A stretch of 20,000 bases of DNA, from the IMG/VR virus record IMGVR_UViG_3300031884_000009. One strand, written 5' to 3'. The notes under the pieces were generated by a model, which saw nothing but the letters and a program-made list of their open reading frames with translations, was not told the origin of the DNA and searched no databases. This stretch comes from an uncultured virus (IMG/VR IMGVR_UViG_3300031884_000009). Taxonomy: Duplodnaviria; Heunggongvirae; Uroviricota; Caudoviricetes. Positions 1 to 17,412 of this stretch are shown piece after piece. Both the position numbers and the translations under genes were made by a program. The number at the start of each line of letters is the position of its first letter. Positions within the stretch are counted from its first letter, which is position 1.

Positions 1-450
1 ACAACCACCGAAACTCAAAAAGCCCGTGATGCTTTTAATGACTATCTTGAAAGAACAACAAATAAACGTTCTGAAGAAATTGCTCGAAAAGCATACGAAA
101 CAGAACGTGTTGCTTTAGCTAAAGATACATTACCTACTTTATTTGCTAATAATAGTGGAGCTGCTATTAAAGACCAATTACAAAACTTAGGTAAGAATCC
201 TGAAGGAGTTAAAGTATTTAATCAAGAATTCTTAAGTTACTTAAAAGGCACTACGGCTGTAGAAGCTAAAAAGATGTGGGGAACTATTGGTCCTGAAGTT
301 AAAAAACAGATGAAACTCTCTGATAAAGTGTATAATAACATTACTGACATTATGCAAGGTGCTCAGACACCTCAAGATATTAGTCGTGCTATGAGATTAT
401 TTATTGGTGCTACAACTGCTGGTGCTATCGCTAAAGAGAAAAACCTATGA
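1..450 (+). CDS. C-terminal part of a larger protein (5' truncated), probably a virion/internal protein
   Basis: Frame 1 is open from base 1 to TGA at 448-450 (TTTETQKARDAF...GAIAKEKNL*), with an ATGA overlap onto the next gene. Function is inferred only from its position in the late region. Confidence 0.7.
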   Translation, partial: TTTETQKARDAFNDYLERTTNKRSEEIARKAYETERVALAKDTLPTLFANNSGAAIKDQLQNLGKNPEGVKVFNQEFLSYLKGTTAVEAKKMWGTIGPEVKKQMKLSDKVYNNITDIMQGAQTPQDISRAMRLFIGATTAGAIAKEKNL

Positions 451-995
451 ATGTATTAATTAAACAATGTACTTCTTGTAAAACTCAAAAAGAAATAACT
501 GAGTTTTATAAGGATTCTCATTTAAAAAGTGGATACGCAAGTTCATGTAAAAAATGTATTTCTGTTCGTCAAAAAACATTTAAAGAAAATAATAAAGATT
601 ATTTTAAACAATATAACAAACAATATTGGATTAAAAATAAAAAACAAATGTCTTTACAGTCTAAAAAATACTACGAAGAAAATAAAGAAAATTTAGCAGA
701 ACAAAACAAACAAAGAAGTAAAAAACACTTTCAAGAAAATAAACATCTATACAACGCTAAAAGAGCTAAGTATAGAGCTACTAAATTAAAAGCTACTCCT
801 AAATGGGCTGATTTAAAAGCTATTAAAATTGAATATTCCTTAGCTTCTTGGTGTTCTGCAGTAACAGGAGTGCCTTATGAAGTAGACCATATAATTCCGC
901 TACAGGGTGAAAATGTTTGCGGTCTACATGTTCATTATAATTTACAAGTAATACAACGTGCTCCTAATCGTAGTAAAGGTAATAAACATGCTTAA
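447..995 (+). CDS. Free-standing HNH homing endonuclease with N-terminal CxxC...CxxC zinc-binding region
   Basis: CTSC and CKKC near the N-terminus; Lys-rich linker; C-terminal EVDHIIPL-x7-GLHVHYNLQVI-x4-NRSKGN HNH motif. Visibly more AT-rich than the downstream gene. Confidence 0.9.
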   Translation: MNVLIKQCTSCKTQKEITEFYKDSHLKSGYASSCKKCISVRQKTFKENNKDYFKQYNKQYWIKNKKQMSLQSKKYYEENKENLAEQNKQRSKKHFQENKHLYNAKRAKYRATKLKATPKWADLKAIKIEYSLASWCSAVTGVPYEVDHIIPLQGENVCGLHVHYNLQVIQRAPNRSKGNKHA

Positions 996-3539: not shown

Positions 3540-3943
3540 TGCCTACGCCTAATATCTATATGAAGTTTATTATTGCTGTGGGATTGCTTGTACTTTCATT
3601 CATTGGTGGTTTCTATGTAGAGCATCTTCGCTTTGCTAACTACAAAGAACAAGTAGTATCCACAGCTAAGGTACAGGAAGAACATACTAAAGACTTAGTC
3701 AAACAACAACAACTAGTAACAGAAAAGGTAACTAATGATTATAAGAACCAGCTTACTCGCCTTACTGCTATGTACAGTGGGTTGCACATCAATGGTAGCA
3801 GCTCCGTGTCCAGCCCCAGCGACACCCTCGTCAGAGTTAATGGCTTCACCACAGACCCTGTATTTGCTCTACAGTGTGCCAATACCACTCAGCAGCTCGT
3901 CTCCCTCCAAGATTATGTTAAAGAGCAACTAAGCATTAAATAA
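3539..3943 (+). CDS. Rz-like inner-membrane spanin
   Basis: N-terminal TM segment followed by a coiled-coil; a lipoprotein gene is embedded in it; last gene of the lysis cassette. Confidence 0.75.
   Translation: MPTPNIYMKFIIAVGLLVLSFIGGFYVEHLRFANYKEQVVSTAKVQEEHTKDLVKQQQLVTEKVTNDYKNQLTRLTAMYSGLHINGSSSVSSPSDTLVRVNGFTTDPVFALQCANTTQQLVSLQDYVKEQLSIK
3735..3932 (+). CDS. Rz1-like outer-membrane spanin lipoprotein nested in Rz
   Basis: Signal peptide with lipobox (LLALLLCTVG-C); Pro-rich mature part; AAGG RBS upstream; +1 frame inside Rz. Confidence 0.75.
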   Translation: MIIRTSLLALLLCTVGCTSMVAAPCPAPATPSSELMASPQTLYLLYSVPIPLSSSSPSKIMLKSN

Positions 3944-3967
3944 AAAGACCCTGCACGAAGCAGGGCC
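3942..3967 (-). terminator. Rho-independent terminator at the convergence of the two transcription blocks
   Basis: - strand GGCCCTGC-TTCGT-GCAGGGTC followed by TTTTT. Confidence 0.75.
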
Positions 3968-3991
3968 ATAAAATACAACTACCGAGAATTC

Positions 3992-4267
3992 TTACAATAC
4001 AGGTTCTGCAGGATAATTAGCAGGATGAGGAGGCTGTAGCTCTCTAAAGAAAGCTGTAGTCTGTAGCTCTAACAACTTATCGTTAAGAGGCTGTACTATC
4101 TTAATCAAGTCTTGAACTAACAACATTTGTTGAATAGCATCTAAATCTTTTAAGCTAGTTCCTGATTCCTGACAACGACTAAACACAATAGGCATTAACT
4201 GGTCTGCTGTGTTCAATACTTCTTCAAGTCGTTTCAATCCTGCAAATACATTATCTAAATCAATCAT
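3992..4267 (-). CDS. Hypothetical protein
   Basis: 91 aa ORF with AAGGA RBS, ATGA-coupled to the upstream gene. Confidence 0.7.
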   Translation of the reverse strand: MIDLDNVFAGLKRLEEVLNTADQLMPIVFSRCQESGTSLKDLDAIQQMLLVQDLIKIVQPLNDKLLELQTTAFFRELQPPHPANYPAEPVL

Positions 4268-4419
4268 TTCATTTCCTTTGTAATAGCACTTAACTGGCTA
4301 GATAGTTCACTCATAAACTGAGCCAGTAAAGCTGCTTCTTTAAACTTACGTCCATTAGCAGCAATCAAATAGTCACTGCTATACTTTTTAATAAGTAATA
4401 GTGTATGTGCATAATCCAT
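4264..4419 (-). CDS. Hypothetical 51 aa protein
   Basis: Not in track. MDYAHTLLLIKKYSSDYLIAANGRKFKEAALLAQFMSELSSQLSAITKEMK* fills the gap exactly. Confidence 0.65.
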   Translation of the reverse strand: MDYAHTLLLIKKYSSDYLIAANGRKFKEAALLAQFMSELSSQLSAITKEMK

Positions 4420-4420
4420 C

Positions 4421-4645
4421 TTAGTGCCTCGTATTCTTCTTGTACTTTTCTACCATCATTGCATCTGCCATGACATAAGAGAAATGAGCAATAACTTCAC
4501 AATACTCTTCTACGTTTGTCTCTGGAACACCAGCAGCAGAGATTGCTCCTGACAATACTGATGTTGCGTAAAAGTCACGGAGGCCTGGAATCTCCTGCTC
4601 AATAGGAGGACCCATGTCATGTAGTGGTTTTTTAGTTGTCATCAT
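4421..4645 (-). CDS. Hypothetical phage protein (LRDxxA...Y.MADAM type)
   Basis: GLRDFYA...SYVMADAM resembles a widespread small phage protein motif. Confidence 0.7.
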   Translation of the reverse strand: MMTTKKPLHDMGPPIEQEIPGLRDFYATSVLSGAISAAGVPETNVEEYCEVIAHFSYVMADAMMVEKYKKNTRH

Positions 4646-7500: not shown

Positions 7501-8187
7501 TTATAACCCTTCGGTGGGAGGTTGCCAGAGCTGGTTGGCTTCTCTTCTAAGCCAAAGCAGTCTTGCATTTTCAATCGTTCGTTCTTCTGAGCCACCGTAA
7601 GCTTCGACACAAGCAGTATACATTTCTGCTGCACTTGTACATCCGTTGAGGATTTTGTCAGCCTTAACAGGGCCGATGCCTTTGAGACCAATGATGTTAT
7701 CAACTCTGTCACCTGTAAGTACCTGTCTATAAAAGTTGAGCAATGCTTCTTCTTCGTTTACTTCTGTCATCTCTTTCTTGACAAAGTTCCAGTGCTTACC
7801 TTTTAATTGGGCCATGTCTTTATCAATCGATGCGATAATACTTTGATAGTTATGAGCTACGTGCGCTGTCGCAATATCATCGTCAGCTTCTTGTCCGTCA
7901 GACACTGAAAATCCCCAACCATCTATCATATATTCACGTAATATTTCTAAATGTTTAGGCTTAGCAGATGTTCTGTTTCCTTTGTAAGGAGCTGTGACAG
8001 CTATTTCATTTCTAAAATTAGTTTTACCAGTAAGGAATCCCTGATATGTTTCAACTCCTTCTAGGTCTTCCCATAACATTGTTTCAATAAAATGGGCACA
8101 ACGAGAAATAGCAATCTTTTCGCTTTCTTCTTCAGTAGAAAAACCTATTCTGTACCCAAGAATGTCCGCATCTATTAAAACGTGCAT
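7501..8187 (-). CDS. 5'-3' exonuclease (T7 gp6/FEN-like)
   Basis: LIDAD, YKGNR, EADD, SIDKD, GDRVDNIIGLKGIGPVKA motifs. Confidence 0.92.
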   Translation of the reverse strand: MHVLIDADILGYRIGFSTEEESEKIAISRCAHFIETMLWEDLEGVETYQGFLTGKTNFRNEIAVTAPYKGNRTSAKPKHLEILREYMIDGWGFSVSDGQEADDDIATAHVAHNYQSIIASIDKDMAQLKGKHWNFVKKEMTEVNEEEALLNFYRQVLTGDRVDNIIGLKGIGPVKADKILNGCTSAAEMYTACVEAYGGSEERTIENARLLWLRREANQLWQPPTEGL

Positions 8188-8230: not shown

Positions 8231-8653
8231 CTACAATACGTCGTCAAGTTCTTCTACGTTAGCACCTTTGTATTCGATTAGATTAGTAATCGTCAACTTT
8301 TTCAAAGATGGACTAACACCTTTTTTACCACGATAATTCCACTCATACGAAGAAACAATCGCTGTGCATTTGCTACCATTAGCAATCTTCTTATCTGCAG
8401 AGATGAGTTCTCCGTCAGTAGTAAAAGCATCAATCTTGTAATTGCTCTTACAAGTGATGTACTTACCTTCTGCTGAACGCTTCTCTTCGTTTGTACGAAC
8501 TGTAATACCTAGCTCTTCTAATGCTGTTGCTGCCTTATCTGATAGGTTAGACAAGTTGATTGTGTATTGCTCTTTATCCGATGTAGGATTAGGAGTTTGT
8601 GTACATGCCCAAAATACGTCTGCCTGAACTGCTACTGATTTACCTGTACTCAT
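8231..8653 (-). CDS. Single-stranded DNA-binding protein (T7 gp2.5-like)
   Basis: Lies between polymerase and exonuclease; IANGSKC...YEW...KKGVS pattern; acidic C-tail EELDDVL; strong RBS. Confidence 0.75.
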   Translation of the reverse strand: MSTGKSVAVQADVFWACTQTPNPTSDKEQYTINLSNLSDKAATALEELGITVRTNEEKRSAEGKYITCKSNYKIDAFTTDGELISADKKIANGSKCTAIVSSYEWNYRGKKGVSPSLKKLTITNLIEYKGANVEELDDVL

Positions 8654-8724: not shown

Positions 8725-10377
8725 TTAATGACAATCAGCCCATGTATGTCCTACTTTGTATTCTGCACCTACGGGACATCTAAACTTTAAAATCTCTCCT
8801 GATTCTCTTGCTGCTTGTACTACTAATTTACCTACTTGTTCTCCGTACTGTTCAGGTGTTTCTATTTGAACCTCGTCGTGACACCAGGTTACTAGCTTAT
8901 AAGGTATCTTTGCTGCTGTCAAGTTCTTTTTGATTTGAACAAGCCACTGCTTAGCGATGATAGCCCCTGCACTTTGTAGTAACGTGTTGAGCGACGAATG
9001 AGCCGACCTGACCTTAAGTTGATAACCATGAAGCCCAGGTAGTGTTCCCTTTTCAGCAAGGCGTTCAACTTTGGATTTAAGCCTCGCATACGCTGGTATT
9101 GCTTTACTGAAGCTATTGATAATGTTGGCTCCTTGCTTCGCAGTGCCACCAATAACTGTACCAATCTTGGTTGGGGATGCTCCGTACAAAGTCGCATAAA
9201 GGACAGTCTTCGCAAGGTCTCTCGTCTCAACCCCGAAAGCTTGCTGATTTCTCGTGTGGACATCACCGTTGACTGTCTCATTTATGTAGTCCAAGTCATT
9301 AAGGTAATGAGCAAAACAACGCAGTTCAATACCAGACAAGTCAACACCCACAAGGACATTCCCCTTATCAACCGTCCAACACGAACGGAACTCTGTACCC
9401 AAAGTAGCTCGCACTGCTGGCACCTGAGCCATATTAGGGCTACTATGGGTAGCTCTGCCAGTAACAGCACCAAAACCAATAACTTTACCATGAACTCTCC
9501 CGTCCTTTCCTAGTTTTTCTAACCATGAATCTAATTGTGATGCTCTCTTTTGTAATGTCAAATATCTTGCAATAGGTTTAGCTTCCTCAAGCTGTACATC
9601 AGCAAGTACCGTCTCATCGACAATAATCTGCCCCTTCTCTGTAGTCTTGGTAGGCTTCCAACCTTTAGACATAAGACGCTTAGCAATCTGTTGACGTGAG
9701 CCAATATTAAATGCTTCAACATCATCTTTAAGTCTTTTACCAGTCTTCTCCGATACACGCTCCGTAACAATCGGAGGGAATATGGCTTGTAAAGCTTCTT
9801 CAATCTGAGCCATCTCAGTTTTAATTTCACAGAGCAACGTCTGTGCATACGGTTCATCAAGCTTGAATCCATTACGTTCCATCTCCGATAGAATTACTTG
9901 TACTTCATACTCTAGTTTAATAGCTTCGTCGCTAATCTTGTTAGCATCTAATTCTTTCCATAACATATCATATACTTTAGATGTAAGCTCTACGTCTCTT
10001 TGACAATACTCAAGCATAGTATCTGTAAGCCCGTCGTCATAAGCATTAAAATCTAATTTATGATAACCAAGAGTTTTACCCCACGAGTCTAAACTGTGTC
10101 CTCCTTCTCTGCTTGAATCAGATAAACGAGATAAAAGTAAAGTATCTTGAAGTTGAGATTTTCTTATTTTCGTATTCCATAAACGATTAAGGAGATAAGC
10201 ATCAAAAGCAAAAATATTGTGTCCCACGATAGTAATAGCATTTTCTAAATATTCCTTCAACCCTGTAGGTTCTTTCCATACTTTAATCTCTCCAGTTTCA
10301 CGATGTAAAGTAACCACGCACCAGACTATGTCATGTGCTAGGTTGGTTTCAATATCGAGGACTAAAGTCTTAAGCAT
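8725..10377 (-). CDS. polA: Family A DNA polymerase with 3'-5' exonuclease domain (T7 gp5-like)
   Basis: Exo motifs DIETN, GHNIFAFD, YCQRDV; pol motifs DLSGIELR, RDLAKTVLYATLYG, CHDEV. Confidence 0.97.
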   Translation of the reverse strand: MLKTLVLDIETNLAHDIVWCVVTLHRETGEIKVWKEPTGLKEYLENAITIVGHNIFAFDAYLLNRLWNTKIRKSQLQDTLLLSRLSDSSREGGHSLDSWGKTLGYHKLDFNAYDDGLTDTMLEYCQRDVELTSKVYDMLWKELDANKISDEAIKLEYEVQVILSEMERNGFKLDEPYAQTLLCEIKTEMAQIEEALQAIFPPIVTERVSEKTGKRLKDDVEAFNIGSRQQIAKRLMSKGWKPTKTTEKGQIIVDETVLADVQLEEAKPIARYLTLQKRASQLDSWLEKLGKDGRVHGKVIGFGAVTGRATHSSPNMAQVPAVRATLGTEFRSCWTVDKGNVLVGVDLSGIELRCFAHYLNDLDYINETVNGDVHTRNQQAFGVETRDLAKTVLYATLYGASPTKIGTVIGGTAKQGANIINSFSKAIPAYARLKSKVERLAEKGTLPGLHGYQLKVRSAHSSLNTLLQSAGAIIAKQWLVQIKKNLTAAKIPYKLVTWCHDEVQIETPEQYGEQVGKLVVQAARESGEILKFRCPVGAEYKVGHTWADCH

Positions 10378-10517
10378 TACATCTTTTCACAAGAAACAAC
10401 TGTACCAAAATTAGTACACACCATCATTGTACCATCAGGCATAACAATCGTTGTAGTGCTCTGTGCCTGGGCTACTGTCACCAAACAAAACAACAATGTT
10501 GCAATAATAATCTTCAT
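10377..10517 (-). CDS. Small secreted protein, 46 aa, with signal peptide
   Basis: Not in track. MKIIIATLLFCLVTVAQA-QSTTTIVMPDGTMMVCTNFGTVVSCEKM*; AGGAG RBS; TAATG-coupled to polA. Confidence 0.7.
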   Translation of the reverse strand: MKIIIATLLFCLVTVAQAQSTTTIVMPDGTMMVCTNFGTVVSCEKM

Positions 10518-10756
10518 GGTTTAACTCCTATTATCCCACCACTTAGCCTATATGGATAAGCAGTCTTTCTATAAAAACAATATTCTATTTCATTTTTAAC
10601 AGAATAGAACGCTTGATAATTCATTGTATCATGGCATCTGTCATCACCTACATAGCTATTATACATTGCATCTTTGTGCATAATAACTATCCATACTACA
10701 TTACTTAGTAGGAACAGGAGGAGGAACAGGCTTTTCTTTTTTCTTAAATATCTCAT
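10514..10756 (-). CDS. Hypothetical membrane-anchored protein
   Basis: Basic N-terminus plus hydrophobic helix; start is ATG 10756 or TTG 10771. Confidence 0.55.
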   Translation of the reverse strand: MRYLRKKKSLFLLLFLLSNVVWIVIMHKDAMYNSYVGDDRCHDTMNYQAFYSVKNEIEYCFYRKTAYPYRLSGGIIGVKP

Positions 10757-10832
10757 CCCAGTTTTTCTCAAATTGTTCTTTCGGTATTGTTAATGGTCTT
10801 TGCCTATCGCCTTTGCCGCCAGTGCTTCTCAT
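10701..10832 (-). CDS. Small hypothetical protein, 43 aa (GKGxxxRP...NWDxIF type)
   Basis: Not in track. MRSTGGKGDRQRPLTIPKEQFEKNWDEIFKKKEKPVPPPVPTK*; AAGGA RBS; ATGA-coupled. Confidence 0.7.
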   Translation of the reverse strand: MRSTGGKGDRQRPLTIPKEQFEKNWDEIFKKKEKPVPPPVPTK

Positions 10833-11200
10833 AGTTTTCCTTTCTCGACTGCTTCATACCAGTCTTGTAAATATGTTATTAAAGATTCTTTACTGTTACC
10901 AATGAGGTTTAGTTTACCGTTACAGTTTAATACTTGTACTTTAGAAACGTATGCTTCTTCGTCAACATGACCTGTGATAATCAATACCGTATGAATTTTA
11001 GATAAAGATAATAACAGAATCTTTTGACCCATCGTCATCTTCTCACCTTCACGCTTCCATTCACCGAAGATAAACTTTCCTTTACGTTCAACTATCATGT
11101 CAATATTACTAGGCATGAAGTGAGGATTATCAGGAATCATTCCACGAAGGAAACCAAAGTCTACATGAGAAGCATTCGCATTACGCATAGCTGGTATCAT
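10829..11200 (-). CDS. Putative PD-(D/E)XK nuclease-like protein
   Basis: PSNIDMIVERKGKFIFGEWK fits a D-x(n)-E-x-K core. Confidence 0.55.
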   Translation of the reverse strand: MIPAMRNANASHVDFGFLRGMIPDNPHFMPSNIDMIVERKGKFIFGEWKREGEKMTMGQKILLLSLSKIHTVLIITGHVDEEAYVSKVQVLNCNGKLNLIGNSKESLITYLQDWYEAVEKGKL

Positions 11201-11201
11201 T

Positions 11202-11687
11202 TTAATTCATCCCATATCCACTGCATGTTCTATGGCAGTTTTCGTAAGACATCTCCCACCCTGCAGCCTCGTCTTTCAACGCCTCTATTTCTTTCATCTG
11301 GCTTAAATACGCTTCATCATGTAATAATTTGTCAGCTTTCAACGCCTCTATTTCAGCTTGTTGTTTGACAATTATTTTTTCTAAATCAGCAACATATTTA
11401 GGGTCTATTTCATTTGCGTTCATTTCTTTACCTTGTTCACGGAACATGAACTGCTCATTATTTTGAACACTAATTGACCTGTTCATCATTCCTTCTGCAT
11501 AACCTATTTGCTTTCCACGCTCAAAGGAATCTAAATAAAGCTGTTCTGCTGCAACTAACTGTGCTTTATCTTTGTCGTGCGTTTTGTACAAATATTCTAT
11601 TGTTTCTATTTGCTGATAAGCCCATAGTTGAATTTCCGAATCTGCTGTACCGTTTTTTAATGTTTGCAGTTTTCCGTGGTAGCTCAT
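11202..11687 (-). CDS. Hypothetical coiled-coil protein; apparent in-frame fusion of two cassettes (internal MNANE start at 11423)
   Basis: Starts at a junction repeat ATG; internal AAGG-TAAAGAA-ATGAACGCAAATGAA; two EIEALK modules. Confidence 0.7.
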   Translation of the reverse strand: MSYHGKLQTLKNGTADSEIQLWAYQQIETIEYLYKTHDKDKAQLVAAEQLYLDSFERGKQIGYAEGMMNRSISVQNNEQFMFREQGKEMNANEIDPKYVADLEKIIVKQQAEIEALKADKLLHDEAYLSQMKEIEALKDEAAGWEMSYENCHRTCSGYGMN

Positions 11688-11703
11688 TTATCTTGTGCCT
11701 TTC

Positions 11704-11796
11704 TTAACAATGGCTTGCTGAAAGTATTAAATAAAGAGCAATACCGCCAGCTATATAAATCATCACCCAAGATATTACGAAGTCTTTTGTGTTCAT
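11704..11796 (-). CDS. 30 aa single-TM peptide cassette
   Basis: Not in track. MNTKDFVISWVMIYIAGGIALYLILSASHC* starts and stops inside consecutive junction repeats. Confidence 0.65.
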   Translation of the reverse strand: MNTKDFVISWVMIYIAGGIALYLILSASHC

Positions 11797-12005
11797 TTCT
11801 CATTAGCCTTTCTTAACACAAACTGAATAAATTTAATCTCATCATAGCCAAGCCATATATCAAATTCTTCAGCTAATTTCAGTATTTCTTCTTTGTTTAG
11901 CGTCTTTGCTGGATGGGTATAGAGTGGAAGTGTATGAGCCATTCCATCTGTATAAAAAATATTTCCATCTTTATCCATCCACGCTACTGGTTCATTGTCC
12001 GTCAT
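11793..12005 (-). CDS. Hypothetical protein (EPVAWM...PLYTHP...LRKANEK)
   Basis: GAGG RBS; ends in a junction repeat. Confidence 0.75.
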   Translation of the reverse strand: MTDNEPVAWMDKDGNIFYTDGMAHTLPLYTHPAKTLNKEEILKLAEEFDIWLGYDEIKFIQFVLRKANEK

Positions 12006-12267
12006 AGCTAAACCTCAATTGTTCTTTTAACGCCTCTATTTCAGCATTAGCATCATCTAACAACGCTTTATTAGTTTCATTTTGAATGGCTATTTGTGAA
12101 TATTCATTTTCCCTATCCACGATTCTTGTTTGTAATGTTTCTATTTCAGCTTGTTGCTGGCGTAGCATAGTGGCTGCATTCATAACTAAATCTCTAGTAT
12201 CTGAATCACTAATAATTGGAGATTCTAAACAAACCCACAGTTCATCAATCAATTCATTTGCGTTCAT
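11992..12267 (-). CDS. Hypothetical coiled-coil protein (MNANE...MLRQQQAEIE)
   Basis: True start is the repeat ATG at 12267, not 12357. Confidence 0.75.
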   Translation of the reverse strand: MNANELIDELWVCLESPIISDSDTRDLVMNAATMLRQQQAEIETLQTRIVDRENEYSQIAIQNETNKALLDDANAEIEALKEQLRFSYDGQ

Positions 12268-12283
12268 TTCTCTTGTGCCTTTC

Positions 12284-12490
12284 TTAAACTGATAATGGTT
12301 CTTCAATAATCCAATCCAAACCATTGCCTTTGTTTTCAGGCAAAGTTGGAATATCACGCCACATATAATCTATTTGCGATTCGTAAGGTGCATCAGGAAT
12401 TGGCACATATAATCCCCATGCTTGCTGAAGAATCGGCATTTCACCACGCATTACATAACGCAAAGGTGTTAAAGGTTTCCAATATTTCAT
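12284..12490 (-). CDS. Hypothetical protein cassette
   Basis: Starts at a repeat ATG; its stop is the leading TAA of the next repeat. Confidence 0.7.
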   Translation of the reverse strand: MKYWKPLTPLRYVMRGEMPILQQAWGLYVPIPDAPYESQIDYMWRDIPTLPENKGNGLDWIIEEPLSV

Positions 12491-12864
12491 TTTTCATTAG
12501 CCTTTCCTCTTTTAATAAAGCCACATGCACAGCTTGAACATGATATTGCGTCATGCTTTGCTTTCAACGCCTCTATTTCAGCTTGTTGCTGGCGTAGCAT
12601 GGCTTCAGATTTTTGAATTATTGAGTATTCAAATTTAGACATACCATCTTGAAGCGTATCCATCTGACTTAATTGTTGAGCTAGTTCATTTGCGTTCATT
12701 TCTCTTGTGCCTTTCTTAGTATTTCTTAGTATTTCTTCGTACTTATCTAGCTCTTCGTCCGTTGTTCTTCCTACATAAACATCTTTATTATCAGGGTCTC
12801 GGATAAAACGTAGTTTAAGTAAGTCAAGGATTTCTAAATCACGATATAGCATTTTAGTAGTCAT
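12487..12864 (-). CDS. Hypothetical protein; fusion of two cassettes across a junction repeat (second start at 12699)
   Basis: Reads through the repeat as KKGTREM because of a 10-bp duplication at 12712-12731. Confidence 0.7.
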   Translation of the reverse strand: MTTKMLYRDLEILDLLKLRFIRDPDNKDVYVGRTTDEELDKYEEILRNTKKGTREMNANELAQQLSQMDTLQDGMSKFEYSIIQKSEAMLRQQQAEIEALKAKHDAISCSSCACGFIKRGKANEK

Positions 12865-12890
12865 TTCTCTTGTGCCTTTCTTAAATTAGG

Positions 12891-12975
12891 GGTTGACTGT
12901 GCAGACGGTAGCCAACCAATACCGTTAGCAATCGAGCGAGTTGTCTCACTCCAAGCACTACACTTGCTTTGCTAA
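12891..12975 (-). ncRNA. Candidate structured RNA (three-way junction with pseudoknot)
   Basis: P1 GUGUAG/CUGCAC, P2 GAGUGAG/CUCGCUC, P3 ACGGUA/UACCGU; loop GGUUGGC pairs with 3' GUCAACC; G-U pairs all favour the - strand. Confidence 0.55.
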
Positions 12976-13218
12976 TCATTTCTCTTGTGCTTTCTTTAGT
13001 ATTGCTCTAGCAAAAACTAACTGTCTTTCTGCGGTGGAATTATTTGAAAATACATCAAGCCAAATATCACATATCTCATCATCACTTAACTCACGAGGTT
13101 TTGTGGATAATTGACCGCCCTCAAATGCCATAGCAATCAGCTTTCTAATCTCAGGACTGACCGCCATCTGAGTTATGTTTGCATCCCACCAACGGGTAAA
13201 TGGAGATTGATAGTTCAT
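12976..13218 (-). CDS. Hypothetical protein (LSDDEI...FARAILKKAQEK)
   Basis: Starts and ends in junction repeats. Confidence 0.75.
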   Translation of the reverse strand: MNYQSPFTRWWDANITQMAVSPEIRKLIAMAFEGGQLSTKPRELSDDEICDIWLDVFSNNSTAERQLVFARAILKKAQEK

Positions 13219-13427
13219 TTCTCTTGTGCCTTTCTTAGTATTGCTCTAGCAAACTGAATTCCATCACTTTCTAACACCAAATCACTATAACGCCATAAAT
13301 TGTCATCTTGAAATACTTGTGCAATTTCTGCATCTGTTAGTGTTTTTACTTTATTGGTTTTAAGTCCTTCAGCATACCCAAACGCTTTACCACGCTCAAA
13401 AACTTCTAATACTAATTTCTCACTCAT
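13215..13427 (-). CDS. Hypothetical protein (LTDAEI...FARAILRKAQEK)
   Basis: ATGA-coupled to the helicase; ends in a junction repeat. Confidence 0.75.
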   Translation of the reverse strand: MSEKLVLEVFERGKAFGYAEGLKTNKVKTLTDAEIAQVFQDDNLWRYSDLVLESDGIQFARAILRKAQEK

Positions 13428-15001
13428 AATACATCCTCCATTTCAAGCATTCGTCCAGAGTCTTTATTGTATAACAACGAAGCACAATGGGGTGAAGTTA
13501 ATCCTGAAAATCTATTTTTTAAAATGGAAACCCTGGTAGTGTTGCGTTCAATAGGGTCTTCAGCTTGAGCATTACGAACCAATCCAATAACAATGTCACT
13601 AAGTTGGGCGATAGAAGCAGAACCACGCAACTGAGACAATGATGTCGCAGCCCCTTCCTCATGTCCCTTACTATCTGGCCTCTTCAGATGTGACACAGCA
13701 ATAAGACACACTCCAGTTTCTTGAACTAACATACGCAACTTCGTCATTAACTCATCAATAGCCTTGCGCTCATCACCGTTAGATTGTGCAGAAATAATCA
13801 TTGAAATATGGTCTAAAAAGATATACTTGCAATCTGCTGCTTTAGCGAAGTATCGAATACGATTCATCACGTTGTCAATATCCGTAGAACCAAAGTTATC
13901 CCATAAATACAATCTATCTGTACCCATCGTAGCATCAAAGGACTGCTTGAGTTCTTCATTACTTACTAAAGTGTCAGGTAAATGTAAAGGTTTGTTCAAG
14001 TGTAAAGACATAATACTTCTCGCTGTCTTACGTACAGATTCTTCCATAAACATTAAGCCAATGTTAGAGTCTGTAGTCTGTATCAAGTGCCAGAGAATCT
14101 CACGCAAGAATTGAGACTTACCTAGTCCTGAACCTGCACAGACTGTGATAAGCTCTGCTGGACGGATTCCATAGGTAAGCTCGTTGACTCCTGCCCAAGG
14201 ATAGAGGGCTGACGATTTCTCCACAGGTCTATTAACTTCTTCCCATAACGAAGAACCTGCGATAATTCCATCCGGTGTCCATTGCTCTGCTGCCCACCAT
14301 TGCTTAACATAATCAGCTCCTTTACCTACTGCAAGATAATCACAAGCATCTTTAAAACCTGCTACGTGCTTCACAATCTTACACTTGCTACCTAGAATCT
14401 CTGCTACTTCATTCGCTGCCTTCTGTCCAGGCTCATCAGCATCAAAGCAGATATAGATATTCTCAAAGGAAGATAACCACTCATAAGAGGCTTTAACGTC
14501 CTTTAGAGCTGCTTGTGCTCCGTTACGTACTGAGACATTAGCGTACTTGCTACCACTCATCTGGAACCCTGCTAGGGCATCTAGCTCACCTTCATGGATA
14601 GTGACAGTCTTACCGCCTTTAGGAAATAACTGCTGACCGAATAAAGTCGTATGTTTCCACTCTCCAGAGATACCAAAAGTCTTATGCTCAACATTACGAT
14701 TCTTGGTAGCTACAATAATACCTTCTGCATCTGCGTAGGGATAGAACTGTGAAGTCCCATCTTGAGTTACTCCGTAATATTGGCAAGTATCTCGTGTGAT
14801 GCCTCTGTCGCTAATCGACATAATACTGCCTTTAACTTCTAACATATTCTTCTTCCTTGTAGGTGCAACATAACTTTCTGTTCCATCGCCTTTAATGTGA
14901 TTACCACACACATGACAATATTCGTGATGGTCATCATACAATGAATTCCCATCGGAGCTACCGCATTTAAGACATGGAATGTGCTTAAGGAAATTAGACA
15001 C
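13424..15001 (-). CDS. DNA primase/helicase (T7 gp4-like)
   Basis: Zn finger CLKC...CHVC; TOPRIM EGELD and CFDADEPG; Walker A AGSGLGKS; FLDHIS; LRGSASIAQLSD; KNRF. Confidence 0.97.
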   Translation of the reverse strand: MSNFLKHIPCLKCGSSDGNSLYDDHHEYCHVCGNHIKGDGTESYVAPTRKKNMLEVKGSIMSISDRGITRDTCQYYGVTQDGTSQFYPYADAEGIIVATKNRNVEHKTFGISGEWKHTTLFGQQLFPKGGKTVTIHEGELDALAGFQMSGSKYANVSVRNGAQAALKDVKASYEWLSSFENIYICFDADEPGQKAANEVAEILGSKCKIVKHVAGFKDACDYLAVGKGADYVKQWWAAEQWTPDGIIAGSSLWEEVNRPVEKSSALYPWAGVNELTYGIRPAELITVCAGSGLGKSQFLREILWHLIQTTDSNIGLMFMEESVRKTARSIMSLHLNKPLHLPDTLVSNEELKQSFDATMGTDRLYLWDNFGSTDIDNVMNRIRYFAKAADCKYIFLDHISMIISAQSNGDERKAIDELMTKLRMLVQETGVCLIAVSHLKRPDSKGHEEGAATSLSQLRGSASIAQLSDIVIGLVRNAQAEDPIERNTTRVSILKNRFSGLTSPHCASLLYNKDSGRMLEMEDVL

Positions 15002-15563
15002 TTAAATAATCTCCCCATTGTTGTGCTATCGCATCAGCGATTCCTTGGTAAGTAGTGCTGCGTAGTTTCCATCTATCAGGGCTAGGAGGCATTTTGTGCA
15101 CTTTAGCTTCTCTGCCTTCAACAATATTAGTAGGAACAAGTTTAGGTAAGTTTTTAAGCCATAGACAAGTTGCTTTAGTTTCTCCATGCCCGAACTGCCA
15201 AGGCTGTATTATCTGGTCAGGTTTTCTAATTTTACTAGAAATCACGCTAATAGGATTTTCTAAAGCAATATGTTTAATATTTGCATCAAGTAGTTTACGA
15301 ACAAAATCTAAAGCCTCTGCCTGTTCTACCACCTTGTCTTTAAACCATCTTGAACCAGAAACTGCTAAGTGCGTGCAAGGTGGGTGAGCAACCATCAAAG
15401 AAAAACCATTATCAATAATATCAAATACATCTCCTTGATAATGAGGCCCAGGGACATCAGTAGGAAGTAAGTCGCATGAAATAGCATCAAAGCCTCTTTT
15501 AATAAAAGCATCTCTAACTCTACCACTATATTCACACGCTACAAGTATTTTAATTTTAGACAT
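14994..15563 (-). CDS. Short phage C5-cytosine methyltransferase-like protein
   Basis: HPPC catalytic motif IV and LENP motif VI; atypical motif I (VACEYSG). Confidence 0.75.
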   Translation of the reverse strand: MSKIKILVACEYSGRVRDAFIKRGFDAISCDLLPTDVPGPHYQGDVFDIIDNGFSLMVAHPPCTHLAVSGSRWFKDKVVEQAEALDFVRKLLDANIKHIALENPISVISSKIRKPDQIIQPWQFGHGETKATCLWLKNLPKLVPTNIVEGREAKVHKMPPSPDRWKLRSTTYQGIADAIAQQWGDYLSV

Positions 15564-15571
15564 AATTTTCT

Positions 15572-15659
15572 CTATTTAGTACTACATACTACTTAGTTAA
15601 TTTAGTTTTTAAAAACAATATTAATATTATTTACTATTTAGTACTACATACTACTTAGT
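15572..15659. repeat. Perfect 26-bp direct repeat flanking AT-rich palindromes (possible origin or regulatory site)
   Basis: CTATTTAGTACTACATACTACTTAGT at 15572-15597 and 15634-15659; GTTTTTAAAAAC and AATATTAATATT lie between them. Confidence 0.85.
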
Positions 15660-15870
15660 ATTCATCTAGATTATCATAATCATTATCTAGATATAAATCT
15701 AAATCATCTACATCATTACTACTTAGTAAATCAATTCTATCTTTATAATTAATATCTGTTTTTACTGTTTTTAAACATTTTAAACACATATCTAGATAAT
15801 CATTAGTATTAACTGACTTAATCGTACTTTCGTATGGAGTTAATAACACATTGCAGCAATAGCATCTCAT
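15655..15870 (-). CDS. Small zinc-finger protein with acidic tail
   Basis: CYCC...CLKC; GGAG RBS. Confidence 0.75.
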   Translation of the reverse strand: MRCYCCNVLLTPYESTIKSVNTNDYLDMCLKCLKTVKTDINYKDRIDLLSSNDVDDLDLYLDNDYDNLDEY

Positions 15871-15939
15871 CTGGTGTCTCCGTTGCCTTTTATAGGCGAT
15901 TTAAGGTGCTTTTTAGCTGTTTTCTTAGTCATTTGATAC

Positions 15940-16065
15940 CTATCCTTCATCTTCATCTTGAAAGCCTCCTAGAGCTTCTCCTGAAATGTTATCACAATCC
16001 CAAACTACGTGCTCGCAGTCCATTTCTTCAGGTGCGTAAGTGCTTGCACGATTATCTTCAGGCAT
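15940..16065 (-). CDS. Small acidic hypothetical protein
   Basis: Likely start at ATG 16065 (MPEDNRAS...), overlapping the upstream stop; the track start at 16122 is possible. Confidence 0.45.
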   Translation of the reverse strand: MPEDNRASTYAPEEMDCEHVVWDCDNISGEALGGFQDEDEG

Positions 16066-16249
16066 TATCTTGGTTAAGGAAAGAGTCTCGTGAATCAGAT
16101 TGTGTGTTATAATATACTTCATAATAGTTTCTAAATTCCTTAGCTAGTTTACGCCATGTAGGGAGGTTAGTTTCTCCTACTTCACCTTCATATAATGCTG
16201 GAGCAATTCCACCACGATTTAATAATGCTGTCAATTCTGCATCAGTCAT
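16058..16249 (-). CDS. Hypothetical protein
   Basis: 63 aa, coupled to the upstream gene. Confidence 0.6.
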   Translation of the reverse strand: MTDAELTALLNRGGIAPALYEGEVGETNLPTWRKLAKEFRNYYEVYYNTQSDSRDSFLNQDNA

Positions 16250-16388
16250 AATAATGTTCTCTTAATATACCTCTGTTAATAAAAATCTTTCTTAACTTCA
16301 TTAAAGCTCTTTTCTCAATCTCCCATACTGCCTGGTGCGTAACACCTATTTCTTCTGCTATTTCTTGGTAAGTATAAATCTTAGTCAT
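16242..16388 (-). CDS. Stand-alone sigma-70 region 4-like HTH mini-protein (48 aa)
   Basis: Not in track. MTKIYTYQEIAEEIGVTHQAVWEIEKRALMKLRKIFINRGILREHYYD* aligns to sigma70 4.2 [28 protein letters not shown]. Confidence 0.75.
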   Translation of the reverse strand: MTKIYTYQEIAEEIGVTHQAVWEIEKRALMKLRKIFINRGILREHYYD

Positions 16389-16389
16389 C

Positions 16390-16518
16390 TTAAATACAAT
16401 CTCTATCATACCCTAAAGCCATTAAACGCTTGCGAACCTTCATCAAGGCTTTTCTCTCTATGTAAATTACCATCACGTGCGAGATGCCTAATGCTTTTCC
16501 TATTTCTTGATATGTCAT
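16390..16518 (-). CDS. Stand-alone sigma-70 region 4-like HTH mini-protein (42 aa), paralogue
   Basis: Not in track. MTYQEIGKALGISHVMVIYIERKALMKVRKRLMALGYDRDCI*; GGAG RBS. Confidence 0.75.
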   Translation of the reverse strand: MTYQEIGKALGISHVMVIYIERKALMKVRKRLMALGYDRDCI

Positions 16519-16519
16519 T

Positions 16520-16618
16520 TTATTCTCCCATCCCTTTACAGTAACGAAGCAAACTAATCACGGTATCAATGCACGATGTAACCGCAAAGATAATTAAAAG
16601 CATTTCTTCCTTGTCCAT
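16520..16618 (-). CDS. 32 aa hydrophobic peptide
   Basis: MDKEEMLLIIFAVTSCIDTVISLLRYCKGMGE*; AGGA RBS; TAATG-coupled. Confidence 0.55.
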   Translation of the reverse strand: MDKEEMLLIIFAVTSCIDTVISLLRYCKGMGE

Positions 16619-16737
16619 TATACATTCCTATGGTATGCGTCATGCGGATGCGTAAGCATACTTTTCACTAACTCATCAACAGATGAGAACCATTGTATCA
16701 CCTTTAAGCCATCTTGCTGATAAATAGTAAAGCTCAT
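16618..16737 (-). CDS. 39 aa hypothetical protein
   Basis: MSFTIYQQDGLKVIQWFSSVDELVKSMLTHPHDAYHRNV*; starts at the ATG of the ninth junction repeat. Confidence 0.65.
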   Translation of the reverse strand: MSFTIYQQDGLKVIQWFSSVDELVKSMLTHPHDAYHRNV

Positions 16738-16901
16738 TTTTCTTGTGCCTTTCTTTCCATTTCTTCATACTCAGTCCAATGCAAAACATCAGAAGCTGTA
16801 GGATATTTTTCCCATACATCAGCACCTACTAAAGCATCTACTTCAATCCATTCCCATACCAGTTTAGGTATCCTTGCGTAATATGTAGTGTTTGCGCTCA
16901 T
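16734..16901 (-). CDS. 55 aa hypothetical protein ending RKAQEK
   Basis: MSANTTYYARIPKLVWEW...EEMERKAQEK*; ends in a junction repeat. Confidence 0.65.
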   Translation of the reverse strand: MSANTTYYARIPKLVWEWIEVDALVGADVWEKYPTASDVLHWTEYEEMERKAQEK

Positions 16902-16916
16902 TTCTTTTATAACCTT

Positions 16917-17069
16917 TTAAAATAGTGCATCCTCAAATATAAACTTAGGAGCCTTGCGAAGCTCGATTGTCCATGCGTTAGTACCTACATAGGCGAGGGC
17001 CTCAGCTTTAGTATAGAACCAACGCAGCACAAAACCATCCTCATCACTAACCCAGTATTTGCTCAACAT
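16917..17069 (-). CDS. 50 aa hypothetical protein ending FEDALF
   Basis: MLSKYWVSDEDGFVLRWFYTKAEALAYVGTNAWTIELRKAPKFIFEDALF*; GGAG RBS. Confidence 0.65.
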   Translation of the reverse strand: MLSKYWVSDEDGFVLRWFYTKAEALAYVGTNAWTIELRKAPKFIFEDALF

Positions 17070-17070
17070 A

Positions 17071-17412
17071 TCAAGCTCCGCAATAGTAGTCTTTTTTCAT
17101 GTCTTCCTCAATGGCTTTATCTAGCATATCGCCATCAAGCCATTCAAAAGATGACATATTACCATTACATAGCACAACTGCGGGAGCCATAGCGTCATGA
17201 GGTGCGTGGCAGGCACTATTTCGTAGATGACGATACATCTCAGCGTGTTTAAAGTTTTCTTTATTATCCATCATATAGGACAATAACGATGCTCTGTTAT
17301 CTTCTTGGACTTCTAGGGCATCGCATAGCTGGTTAATGAGGTTAGCTGTCACGACGTAGTCATCATTCAATGCGTAGGCACGTGCCTTGCGTATGAGGTT
17401 TTCAGTAATCAT
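17071..17412 (-). CDS. Hypothetical early protein
   Basis: 113 aa; GGAG RBS. Confidence 0.7.
   Translation of the reverse strand: MITENLIRKARAYALNDDYVVTANLINQLCDALEVQEDNRASLLSYMMDNKENFKHAEMYRHLRNSACHAPHDAMAPAVVLCNGNMSSFEWLDGDMLDKAIEEDMKKDYYCGA

Follow-up and report, generated by a model that had tools for sequence, protein, structure and literature searches.

How the mosaic joints of phage genomes arise, at linker sequences or by illegitimate recombination, has been argued for decades. In the modular theory, boundary or linker sequences are short conserved junction sequences with unrelated flanks that were proposed as sites of homologous exchange, and the usual objection, as put in PMC3029335, is that linkers are not findable at most boundaries. 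In T4-type phages, promoter-early stem-loop (PeSL) cassettes have been described, in which a short expression signal recurs between non-essential small genes, within a variable region flanked by core genes; related phages differ by insertions, deletions, and replacements at the motif, and homologous recombination between copies has been proposed (Arbiol et al. 2010, PMC2839356; Comeau et al. 2014, PMC4122927). Cluster K mycobacteriophages contain start-associated sequences (SAS), 13-bp asymmetric elements (consensus GGGATAGGAGCCC, 11–19 copies) that lie directly upstream of the starts of various gene families, are co-oriented with them, and have a proposed role in translation initiation (PMC3203893). 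Here we analyzed a 20,000-nt stretch of DNA (hereafter the window) from an uncultured virus of the Caudoviricetes (IMG/VR record IMGVR_UViG_3300031884_000009), in which an array of small minus-strand genes is connected by copies of a short repeat, TAAGAAAGGCACAAGAGAAATGA, hereafter the joint. We found that the joint is a stop-start junction conserved at the nucleotide level, that it is widespread among freshwater phages with unrelated backbones, and that breakpoints of homology between these phages coincide with it. We lean, by a modest degree, towards the view that it is a portable joint for translational coupling which doubles as a short patch of homology for the recombinational exchange of gene cassettes. 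As a single linker, shared without a difference by well over 100 junctions in uncultured freshwater phages that differ in their replication modules, and one whose association with breakpoints can be measured against other junctions of the same DNA, it makes the old question testable and differs in both respects from the boundary sequences described before.

The traits of PeSLs mentioned above are shared by the array of the window. On the other hand, PeSLs as described are intergenic and combine a promoter with a terminator, whereas the joint has no promoter-like site, terminator-like site, or stem-loop. A scan of the region 10000–17200 returned 17 promoter-like sites against 26.4 expected, none of them at a repeat copy, and no terminator-like site on the minus strand. 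The 22-mer of the joint is unpaired in predicted folds (z-scores from +0.95 to +1.18, no stable fold), the sole inverted repeat being a 4–5 bp stem in an upstream extension of some copies, and Rfam and tRNA scans gave no match at the joint or the cassettes. A reading as a promoter for a single-subunit RNA polymerase, prompted by similarity to the GGCAC core found in some phage promoters, was also considered; it was dropped because of the fixed register of the joint with the start codon, the absence of such a polymerase from the scanned neighbor clusters (defined below), and the presence of genes on both strands. The joint would act at translation, through its ATGA, and lies mostly inside the upstream coding sequence. 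It spans unrelated backbones, whereas PeSLs are reported within one phage family, and mini-circles have been shown for PeSLs, whereas the joint is known here from assembled contigs. Because it lacks the defining promoter and terminator, the joint is not a PeSL. SAS are similar to the joint in position and orientation; however, they are restricted to one phage cluster, and their description includes neither a stop-start overlap nor a role in shuffling (PMC3203893). In contrast, the joint is 22–39 nt long, has a different sequence, is partly coding, and occurs on diverse backbones.

Two other systems were compared. In ordinary ATGA termination-reinitiation pairs, the stop and start codons overlap, a Shine-Dalgarno-like motif lies upstream inside the preceding gene, and coupling is expected; for ATGA/TGATG gene pairs, coupling was found to be strict in 13 of 14 tested cases (Huber et al. 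2019, PMC6728339). Such overlaps are gene-specific, whereas the joint is one fixed 22-mer in front of more than 100 unrelated genes. Integron arrays likewise hold co-oriented, promoterless small cassettes of varied content between repeated sites. We examined the neighborhood of the joint in a survey set of 77 sequences (620,785 nt), namely the window and 76 loci taken with flanks of up to 6 kb. No integrase was found among 50 neighbor protein clusters within 6 kb (those common to at least three sequences, less two window proteins already annotated). Furthermore, the joint is not a folded attC-like imperfect palindrome, and it stands in a fixed reading-frame register with the genes. Lacking an integrase and a folded att site, the joint is not an integron.

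In the window, a search with up to three mismatches returned eight matches, all on the minus strand, and none of 200 shuffled sequences contained any match (table 1). A preliminary description of this DNA, made from its letters alone, had counted eight copies between the helicase and polA genes. Seven of these lie within the threshold, the one at 12487 is a degenerate relative with six mismatches, and a further good copy is present at 16734. Its four exact copies (12264, 12696, 12861, and 13215) were confirmed, as was its observation that copies 13215 and 12976 share a further 16 nt upstream (TTTGCTAGAGCAATAC, spelling FARAIL), and the ATGA overlap that it reported is present at every window copy. 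The joint can be read in three ways. In frame A, the encoded tail is (L)RKAQEK, and the TGA that ends it overlaps the next ATG. In frame B, the leading TAA halts the upstream open reading frame (ORF) and the other 20 nt form a leader. In frame C, it encodes KKGTREM and is continuous with the next ATG. Thus, the earlier statement that the repeat is itself protein-coding holds for copies 13215, 12976, 11793, and 16734 and the degenerate 12487, which end the upstream protein with the frame-A tail or a variant of it; it fails at 12861, 12264, and 11684, where the TAA stops the upstream ORF and the rest is untranslated, and at 12696 the third frame is read inside a 125-aa ORF. Upstream of copy 12696, the tandem duplication of a 10-mer (12716–12735), which was covered without difference by contigs of two metagenome runs, puts the upstream cassette into frame C instead of frame A, so that two cassettes are fused in this 125-aa ORF. 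Copies 12264 and 12696 are identical over 34 nt, including the MNAN codons.

The same anatomy was observed throughout the survey set, in which 158 copies were detected at up to three mismatches (116 exact and 42 inexact). The ATG is in register in 155 of them, with an ORF starting there, and 151 of 152 complete downstream ORFs are at least 25 aa long (median 61 aa, maximum 329 aa). Frame A is used by 131 copies, frame B by 12, and frame C by one, which is the window copy at 12696; the other 14 are intergenic or cut by a contig end. No reverse-strand copy was found in any of the surveyed loci, and no locus has copies on both strands. The Shine-Dalgarno-like box of the joint is a weak AAAGG, 10 nt before the ATG, whereas other junctions in these phages have strong GGAGG boxes. 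The joint, with its weaker and longer motif, therefore looks like a distinct class, and since it offers only AAAGG, expression probably leans on stop-start coupling.

Analysis of codon choice in the tail revealed that conservation acts on nucleotides. A codon-degenerate scan of IMG/VR for AILRKAQEK plus stop gave 130 distinct hits, 108 of which have one and the same 30-nt string. All 130 use AGA for Arg and TGA as the stop codon; AAG encodes Lys in 128, CTA encodes Leu in 127, and GAG encodes Glu in 122. The FARAIL tails have one 18-nt string in 63 of 65 cases, even though these six codons lie outside the first search pattern. Given the background codon usage of the same loci, the joint probability of the 13 codons is 1.5e-6. 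Free drift of synonymous sites, which the preliminary description had named as a result that would refute its proposal, is therefore not what we see. Information content is about 2 bits up to the ATGA and about 0.2 bits directly past it. On the left, conservation reaches to −17/−22 in the FARAIL class (69 copies) and to about −1 in the remaining 60 frame-A copies and the 25 untranslated ones. These 25 copies, in frame B or intergenic, keep the element although it is not translated there. An explanation by protein-level conservation alone, in which a large paralogous family of small proteins retains the C-terminal peptide ..FARAILRKAQEK, could draw on the 131 copies translated as ..RKAQEK plus stop, on about 100 flanking proteins that fall into one single-linkage superfamily, and on the many homologous segments that are 95–100-nt C-terminal modules. 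However, synonymous sites do not drift, so a purely peptide-level explanation fails; moreover, the same nucleotides are kept untranslated or in other frames, and the tail follows many unrelated proteins, membrane peptides included. We regard this explanation as scarcely credible.

To investigate whether the joint marks points of genetic exchange, we examined its flanks. The 167 distinct exact instances have very diverse flanks; 135 two-sided junctions represent 112 distinct pairs of upstream and downstream families, and the 292 flanking proteins of the surveyed junctions belong to 117 families. Comparison of different sequences produced 3103 high-scoring segment pairs (HSPs) of at least 80 nt. 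Right ends of HSPs fall 15–35 nt past the repeat start in 1210 of 2887 usable cases, a zone that makes up 0.5% of the sequence; in 613 cases, the end point is precisely the final base of the repeat. Enrichment is lower for left ends, of which 145 of 2997 lie within −25 to +5. These HSP counts are not independent events and many of the upstream matches are paralogous, which tempers the case for exchange: many HSPs are 95–100-nt paralogous C-terminal modules with left ends at −93 to −99. For this reason, other tight gene junctions of the same loci were used as a control. At 85% identity or more with at least 150 nt of flank, homology crosses 4 of 47 repeat junctions and 112 of 150 other tight junctions. 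When both ORFs were limited to 120 aa and each pair was counted once, 1 of 19 repeat junctions was crossed versus 38 of 48 others (Fisher's exact test, P-value = 2e-8, although the counts are not independent events), and at 80% identity or more with at least 100 nt, the small-ORF values were 2 of 58 versus 53 of 95. Breakpoints are thus strongly enriched at the repeat, as the preliminary description had predicted.

Gene order in the window is consistent with this result. The adjacencies at its seven junctions are kept in no other locus except a near-identical record (G001), which begins exactly at the 12264 copy and contains no new arrangement. Homologs of window cassettes, among them the 30-aa membrane peptide, the 32-aa ORF, and an MNYQ.. 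gene, occur in a few other contigs, never with the same neighbors on both sides outside this record. The MSFTIYQ.. family, which follows copy 16734, is preceded by the joint behind four different upstream families in other contigs. Relatives of the window therefore do not carry the same genes in the same order. Taken together, the tests of gene order, breakpoints, and synonymous sites support the earlier proposal that the repeats are crossover points for cassettes, a mechanism drawn from comparative patterns in metagenome assemblies.

We further analyzed the distribution of the joint. The exact 22-mer was found between unrelated flanking sequences in at least 129 IMG/VR stretches, and also in 11 stretches on 10 contigs of freshwater-type metagenome-assembled genomes (MAGs); the motif is therefore widespread, which favors the preliminary proposal. 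The array of the window was found in 24 lake or freshwater metagenome runs. Among 50,697 GenBank phage records, only one has the motif (MW202753, an uncultured, circular complete genome from a spring, with two exact copies), so no cultured relative or host is available. Between these two copies (3758–4437), 680 nt lack an annotated gene, and window cassette DNA matches there at 82%. A search of one literature library retrieved no paper for the DNA motif or for the peptide FARAILRKAQEK, and RKAQEK alone led to one unrelated lactoferrin review. Only 7 of the 76 loci share the helicase or polA of the window, and 52 have none of eight window core genes. The replication and recombination modules of the carriers vary accordingly (polA, SNF2 helicase, T7-type primase-helicase, YqaJ, and PD-(D/E)XK nucleases), and a gene for an annealing protein (Erf, Sak, RecT, or gp2.5-like) is located within 6 kb in 27 of the 77 sequences. 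The host labels of the MAGs (Polynucleobacter, Burkholderiales, two betaproteobacteria, Bacteroidetes, Chitinophagaceae, a cyanobacterium, Micrarchaeota, and Nitrosotalea) were rejected as evidence, because the copies lie on single contigs per bin and the long contig examined is archaeal with a chimeric join. In this 138.7-kb contig (L268, G002:C5:118700-138666, about 12600–14050), DNA with a GC content of 0.56 and with PcrB, TruD, and S-layer genes abruptly turns into phage-like DNA (GC 0.35–0.45) with six copies of the joint. An ORF spans the switch, one half being SNF2 helicase and the other glucosamine-6-phosphate isomerase, and the contig is probably a chimeric assembly, not a prophage.

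Such a contig raises the question of whether metagenome assemblers have joined different genomes at a shared repeat, producing the diversity of flanks. Besides the phage-like end of this MAG contig, reached via a chimeric ORF, it could be argued that all carriers are metagenome assemblies, that contigs often end at the repeat (21 of 76 end within 300 nt of a copy, versus 4.8 expected), and that Logan contigs break at exact copies. However, flank diversity recurs across many independent samples, and MW202753 is circular and complete with its two copies. In addition, because the patch of 22–39 nt is shorter than sequencing reads, each junction would be read directly together with both flanks. 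The unique cassettes of the window have about the depth of the backbone in two lake runs (48–56 versus 53–56 and 30–35 versus 32–35), with the exception of 12257–12589. Thus, an assembly artifact is an improbable source of the pattern. In the same two runs, unitigs over shared modules have a summed depth of 20–70 times that of the backbone, which fits many co-occurring genomes sharing modules. The exceptional segment, 12257–12589, which lies between the 34-nt identical copies 12264 and 12696, has a unitig depth below that of its unique neighbors (37 versus 48–56 in run X1 and 13.8 versus 30–35 in run X15), which hints, weakly, that it is missing from part of the population. For practical purposes, the motif flags hypervariable accessory-gene arrays of these phages and accounts for the breaks of their assemblies at these places.

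A possible scheme for the joint is as follows. Its RNA is a purine-rich leader, predicted to be unstructured, with a weak AAAGG box and an ATG that overlaps the TGA, and because of this overlap a ribosome ending the upstream small gene could restart on the next. All three incoming frames are handled, by the ..RKAQEK end with TGA, by the stop at the leading TAA, or by running on into the next ATG. Since the same 22 nt (39 nt after ..FARAIL) are identical in many co-occurring lake phages with different backbones, they could also provide a short stretch of homology. This patch may be used by copy-choice replication or by the annealing proteins of the phages (gp2.5-like in the window; Erf, Sak, or RecT in others), so that whole small genes would be exchanged, deleted, or inserted with expression undisturbed. 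The patch would be kept identical by repeated exchange, and mutated copies would fall out of it. Homologous recombination as the cause, together with the acting enzymes, is what we infer from these patterns; in the window, the gp2.5-like protein and the 5'-3' exonuclease are candidate catalysts of short-homology recombination. Phage recombinases are known to act on short or diverged homology, as in the recombination of diverged DNA by phage Red (PMC2327257), and recombination at short regulatory motifs has been documented for PeSLs (PMC2839356, PMC4122927).

A further step, which we put forward tentatively and consider doubtful, is that the joint is a self-propagating exchange module of the whole lake-phage gene pool, that is, a recombinase-independent cassette system across lineages. 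Its identity would then be kept since DNA between two copies becomes mobile among unrelated phages via their own annealing proteins. If true, the three-frame design, which ends or fuses any incoming ORF, could give rise to new proteins and domain fusions without an integrase.

Several points weigh against exchange at the joint, whether in this wider form or in the scheme of coupling plus short homology. The loci were selected for carrying an exact copy, and their adjacencies derive from metagenome assemblies, in which chimeras may form at repeats. A clean cassette insertion or deletion with repeats at all four ends was found for only 1 of 41 candidate paired-block events (locus L027 versus L058, 138 nt extra). 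Inexact copies lie at breakpoints as often as exact ones (0 of 8 to 0 of 36 crossings), and because the two kinds behave alike, a dependence on sequence identity is not supported. The variable region is bounded by the helicase stop and the polA start, and these two breakpoints lack the repeat. No recombinant molecule, deletion product, or circle was observed in the run data; these are contigs from four runs, whose joints between module copies have sides of 19–39 nt and possibly belong to other genomes, and they give no evidence for deletions in this phage. A length of 22 nt is at the low end of the homology used by recombination systems. Finally, in the 42 inexact copies, mismatches cluster at positions 1–3, 11, 13, and 16, whereas the AAAGG box and the AATG are nearly unchanged. 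This pattern reveals selection for translation and still allows an explanation by function alone.

One such explanation, the main rival of our scheme, is that the 22-mer is a specific cis-regulatory RNA site that co-controls small early genes, for example, an operator for a phage or host translational regulator, a nuclease, or a small RNA. Genes would have been captured behind the site, and recombination would be a by-product. The strict register with the start codon (155 of 158), the end of conservation right after the ATGA, the predicted unstructured and accessible state of the RNA, and the preferential retention of the AAAGG box and AATG in inexact copies all agree with such a site, as does its apparent distinctness from the strong GGAGG junctions. 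A precedent exists in SAS, for which a bound factor has been proposed (PMC3203893). However, no candidate regulator is common to the carriers, 52 of 76 of which share none of the eight core genes and whose neighbors are diverse, and no antisense copy is present in any locus. Because working-looking diverged copies vary at positions 1–3, 11, 13, and 16, function seems not to need these positions, yet they are identical in 116 of 158 copies; this suggests that translation does not require what most copies conserve. The 17-nt upstream extension is equally frozen (63 of 65), though it is far from the start codon. Considering both sides, we think that a regulatory site is somewhat unlikely to be the full explanation.

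Another way to link the joint with exchange is cleavage. The joint might be the target of a free-standing homing-type endonuclease, with breaks repaired from a co-infecting genome and neighboring cassettes co-converted. The joint, at 22–39 nt, has a length typical for targets of homing enzymes. An HNH_3 endonuclease cluster is located near arrays in five sequences, and the window itself encodes an endonuclease VII-like protein. On the other hand, a homing-type gene is present within 6 kb in only those 5 of the 77 sequences, a genome with many intact sites would suffer repeated cutting by its own nuclease, and there is no evidence of cleavage. A homing target therefore appears very improbable, and we retain coupling plus short-homology exchange as the working scheme.

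Table 1. Copies of the joint and other features of the window (aa, amino acids; ssDNA, single-stranded DNA; frames as defined in the text)
Feature	Position	Strand	Remarks
Endonuclease VII-like protein	447–995		
5'-3' exonuclease	7501–8187	−	PF02739, PF01367
gp2.5-like ssDNA-binding/annealing protein	8231–8653	−	phrog_112, E 9e-7; cluster common to 4 loci
polA	8725–10377	−	
Variable region between primase-helicase gene and polA	10378–13423	−	
Junction copy	11684–11706	−	1 mismatch; frame B, TAA is stop of 30-aa ORF; alternative 39-aa frame-A ORF 11684–11803 also open; opens 161-aa ORF 11202–11687, with in-frame junction relic ..REQGKEMNANEI..
Junction copy	11793–11815	−	3 mismatches; frame A, ..FVLRKANEK and stop, end of NEPVAW-type ORF 11793–12005; opens 30-aa hydrophobic ORF 11704–11796
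Junction copy	12264–12286	−	Exact; frame B, TAA is stop of ORF 12284–12490; ATG at 12267 opens 91-aa MNANEL coiled-coil ORF 11992–12267
Degenerate junction	12487–12509	−	6 mismatches to 23-mer; ..KRGKANEK and stop, with ATGA; opens ORF 12284–12490
Junction copy	12696–12718	−	Exact; frame C read-through, ..KKGTREMNANEL.., within 125-aa ORF 12487–12864; ATG still begins MNANEL-type module
Exact tandem duplication of 10-mer	12716–12735	−	GAAATACTAA twice; sequence read directly
Junction copy	12861–12883	−	Exact; frame B, TAA 12883–12881 is stop of ORF 12881–12979; remainder is untranslated leader; opens ORF 12487–12864
Junction copy	12976–12998	−	3 mismatches; frame A, ..FARAILKKAQEK and stop; opens 32-aa ORF 12881–12979
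Junction copy	13215–13237	−	Exact; frame A, closes ORF 13215–13427 as ..FARAILRKAQEK and stop; ATG 13218–13216 opens ORF 12976–13218; with 13238–13253, 39-nt extended form
T7-type primase-helicase	13424–15001	−	
DNA methyltransferase-like	14994–15563	−	
Junction copy, outside the interval first described	16734–16756	−	2 mismatches; frame A, ..EEMERKAQEK and stop, ORF 16734–16901; opens 39-aa ORF 16618–16737 (MSFTIYQ..)

The array belongs to the early/replication region of the phage, which is encoded on the minus strand; the genes of the window run on both strands. Related backbones align through the helicase (50–89% aa identity) and polA (47–80%), and the interval between these genes is 3040 nt in the window versus 988–2827 nt in five relatives. 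Within the variable region, no DNA match of 100 nt or more was found to four loci compared (L009, L015, L029, and L069).

Many of the small proteins next to the joint are themselves composite. The single-linkage superfamily of about 100 small proteins is assembled from recurring sub-gene modules, such as the MNANEL start, the ..QQQAEIEALK coiled coil, NEPVAW..PLYTHPAKTL, FERGKxxGYAEG, and ..LTDxEI..FARAIL. DNA repeats of several such modules are present inside the window too (11273–11357, 12024–12168, and 12561–12600; 11405–11429, 12249–12273, and 12681–12705), where a 22-nt AEIEALK coiled-coil segment occurs five times and the MNANE start four times. Since sub-gene modules are repeated as DNA, exchange may also happen within genes.

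With regard to cargo, the preliminary description had suggested roles in host takeover or anti-defence, which found no support: Pfam, PHROGs, and NCBIfam showed no family above noise for the window cassette proteins. In a protein atlas, all hits were hypothetical clusters of viruses; the closest named family there, PF26207 (score 0.75–0.78), was set aside as below a usable lead. The suggestion of a possible RNA cargo fared no better, as the Rfam and tRNA scans were empty and the 115-nt cassette at 12861–12998 folds no better than its shuffles (z = −0.41).

Other features of the window were also noted. Two adjacent tiny minus-strand ORFs, 16242–16409 and 16390–16518 (55 and 42 aa), both resemble sigma-70 region 4, below curated cut-offs (best E-values 1.2e-5 and 9e-5), and in MW202753, a 43-aa ORF with comparable surroundings is annotated as a sigma factor. 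The intergenic region 15560–15830, upstream of the methyltransferase gene, contains two 36-nt direct repeats and several overlapping palindromes and may be a promoter, operator, or origin region. The methyltransferase-like gene (14994–15563) is missing from L015, the closest helicase relative (89% identical), in which the homology blocks flanking the gap are about 49 nt apart versus 658 nt in the window; this indel is not bounded by the joint. Among the late genes, the plus-strand ORF 958–2328 encodes an ATP-grasp protein similar to phosphoribosylglycinamide synthetase (PF01071, PF02843), which adjoins a tail-fibre-like ORF and a lysozyme, an unusual position for such a gene.

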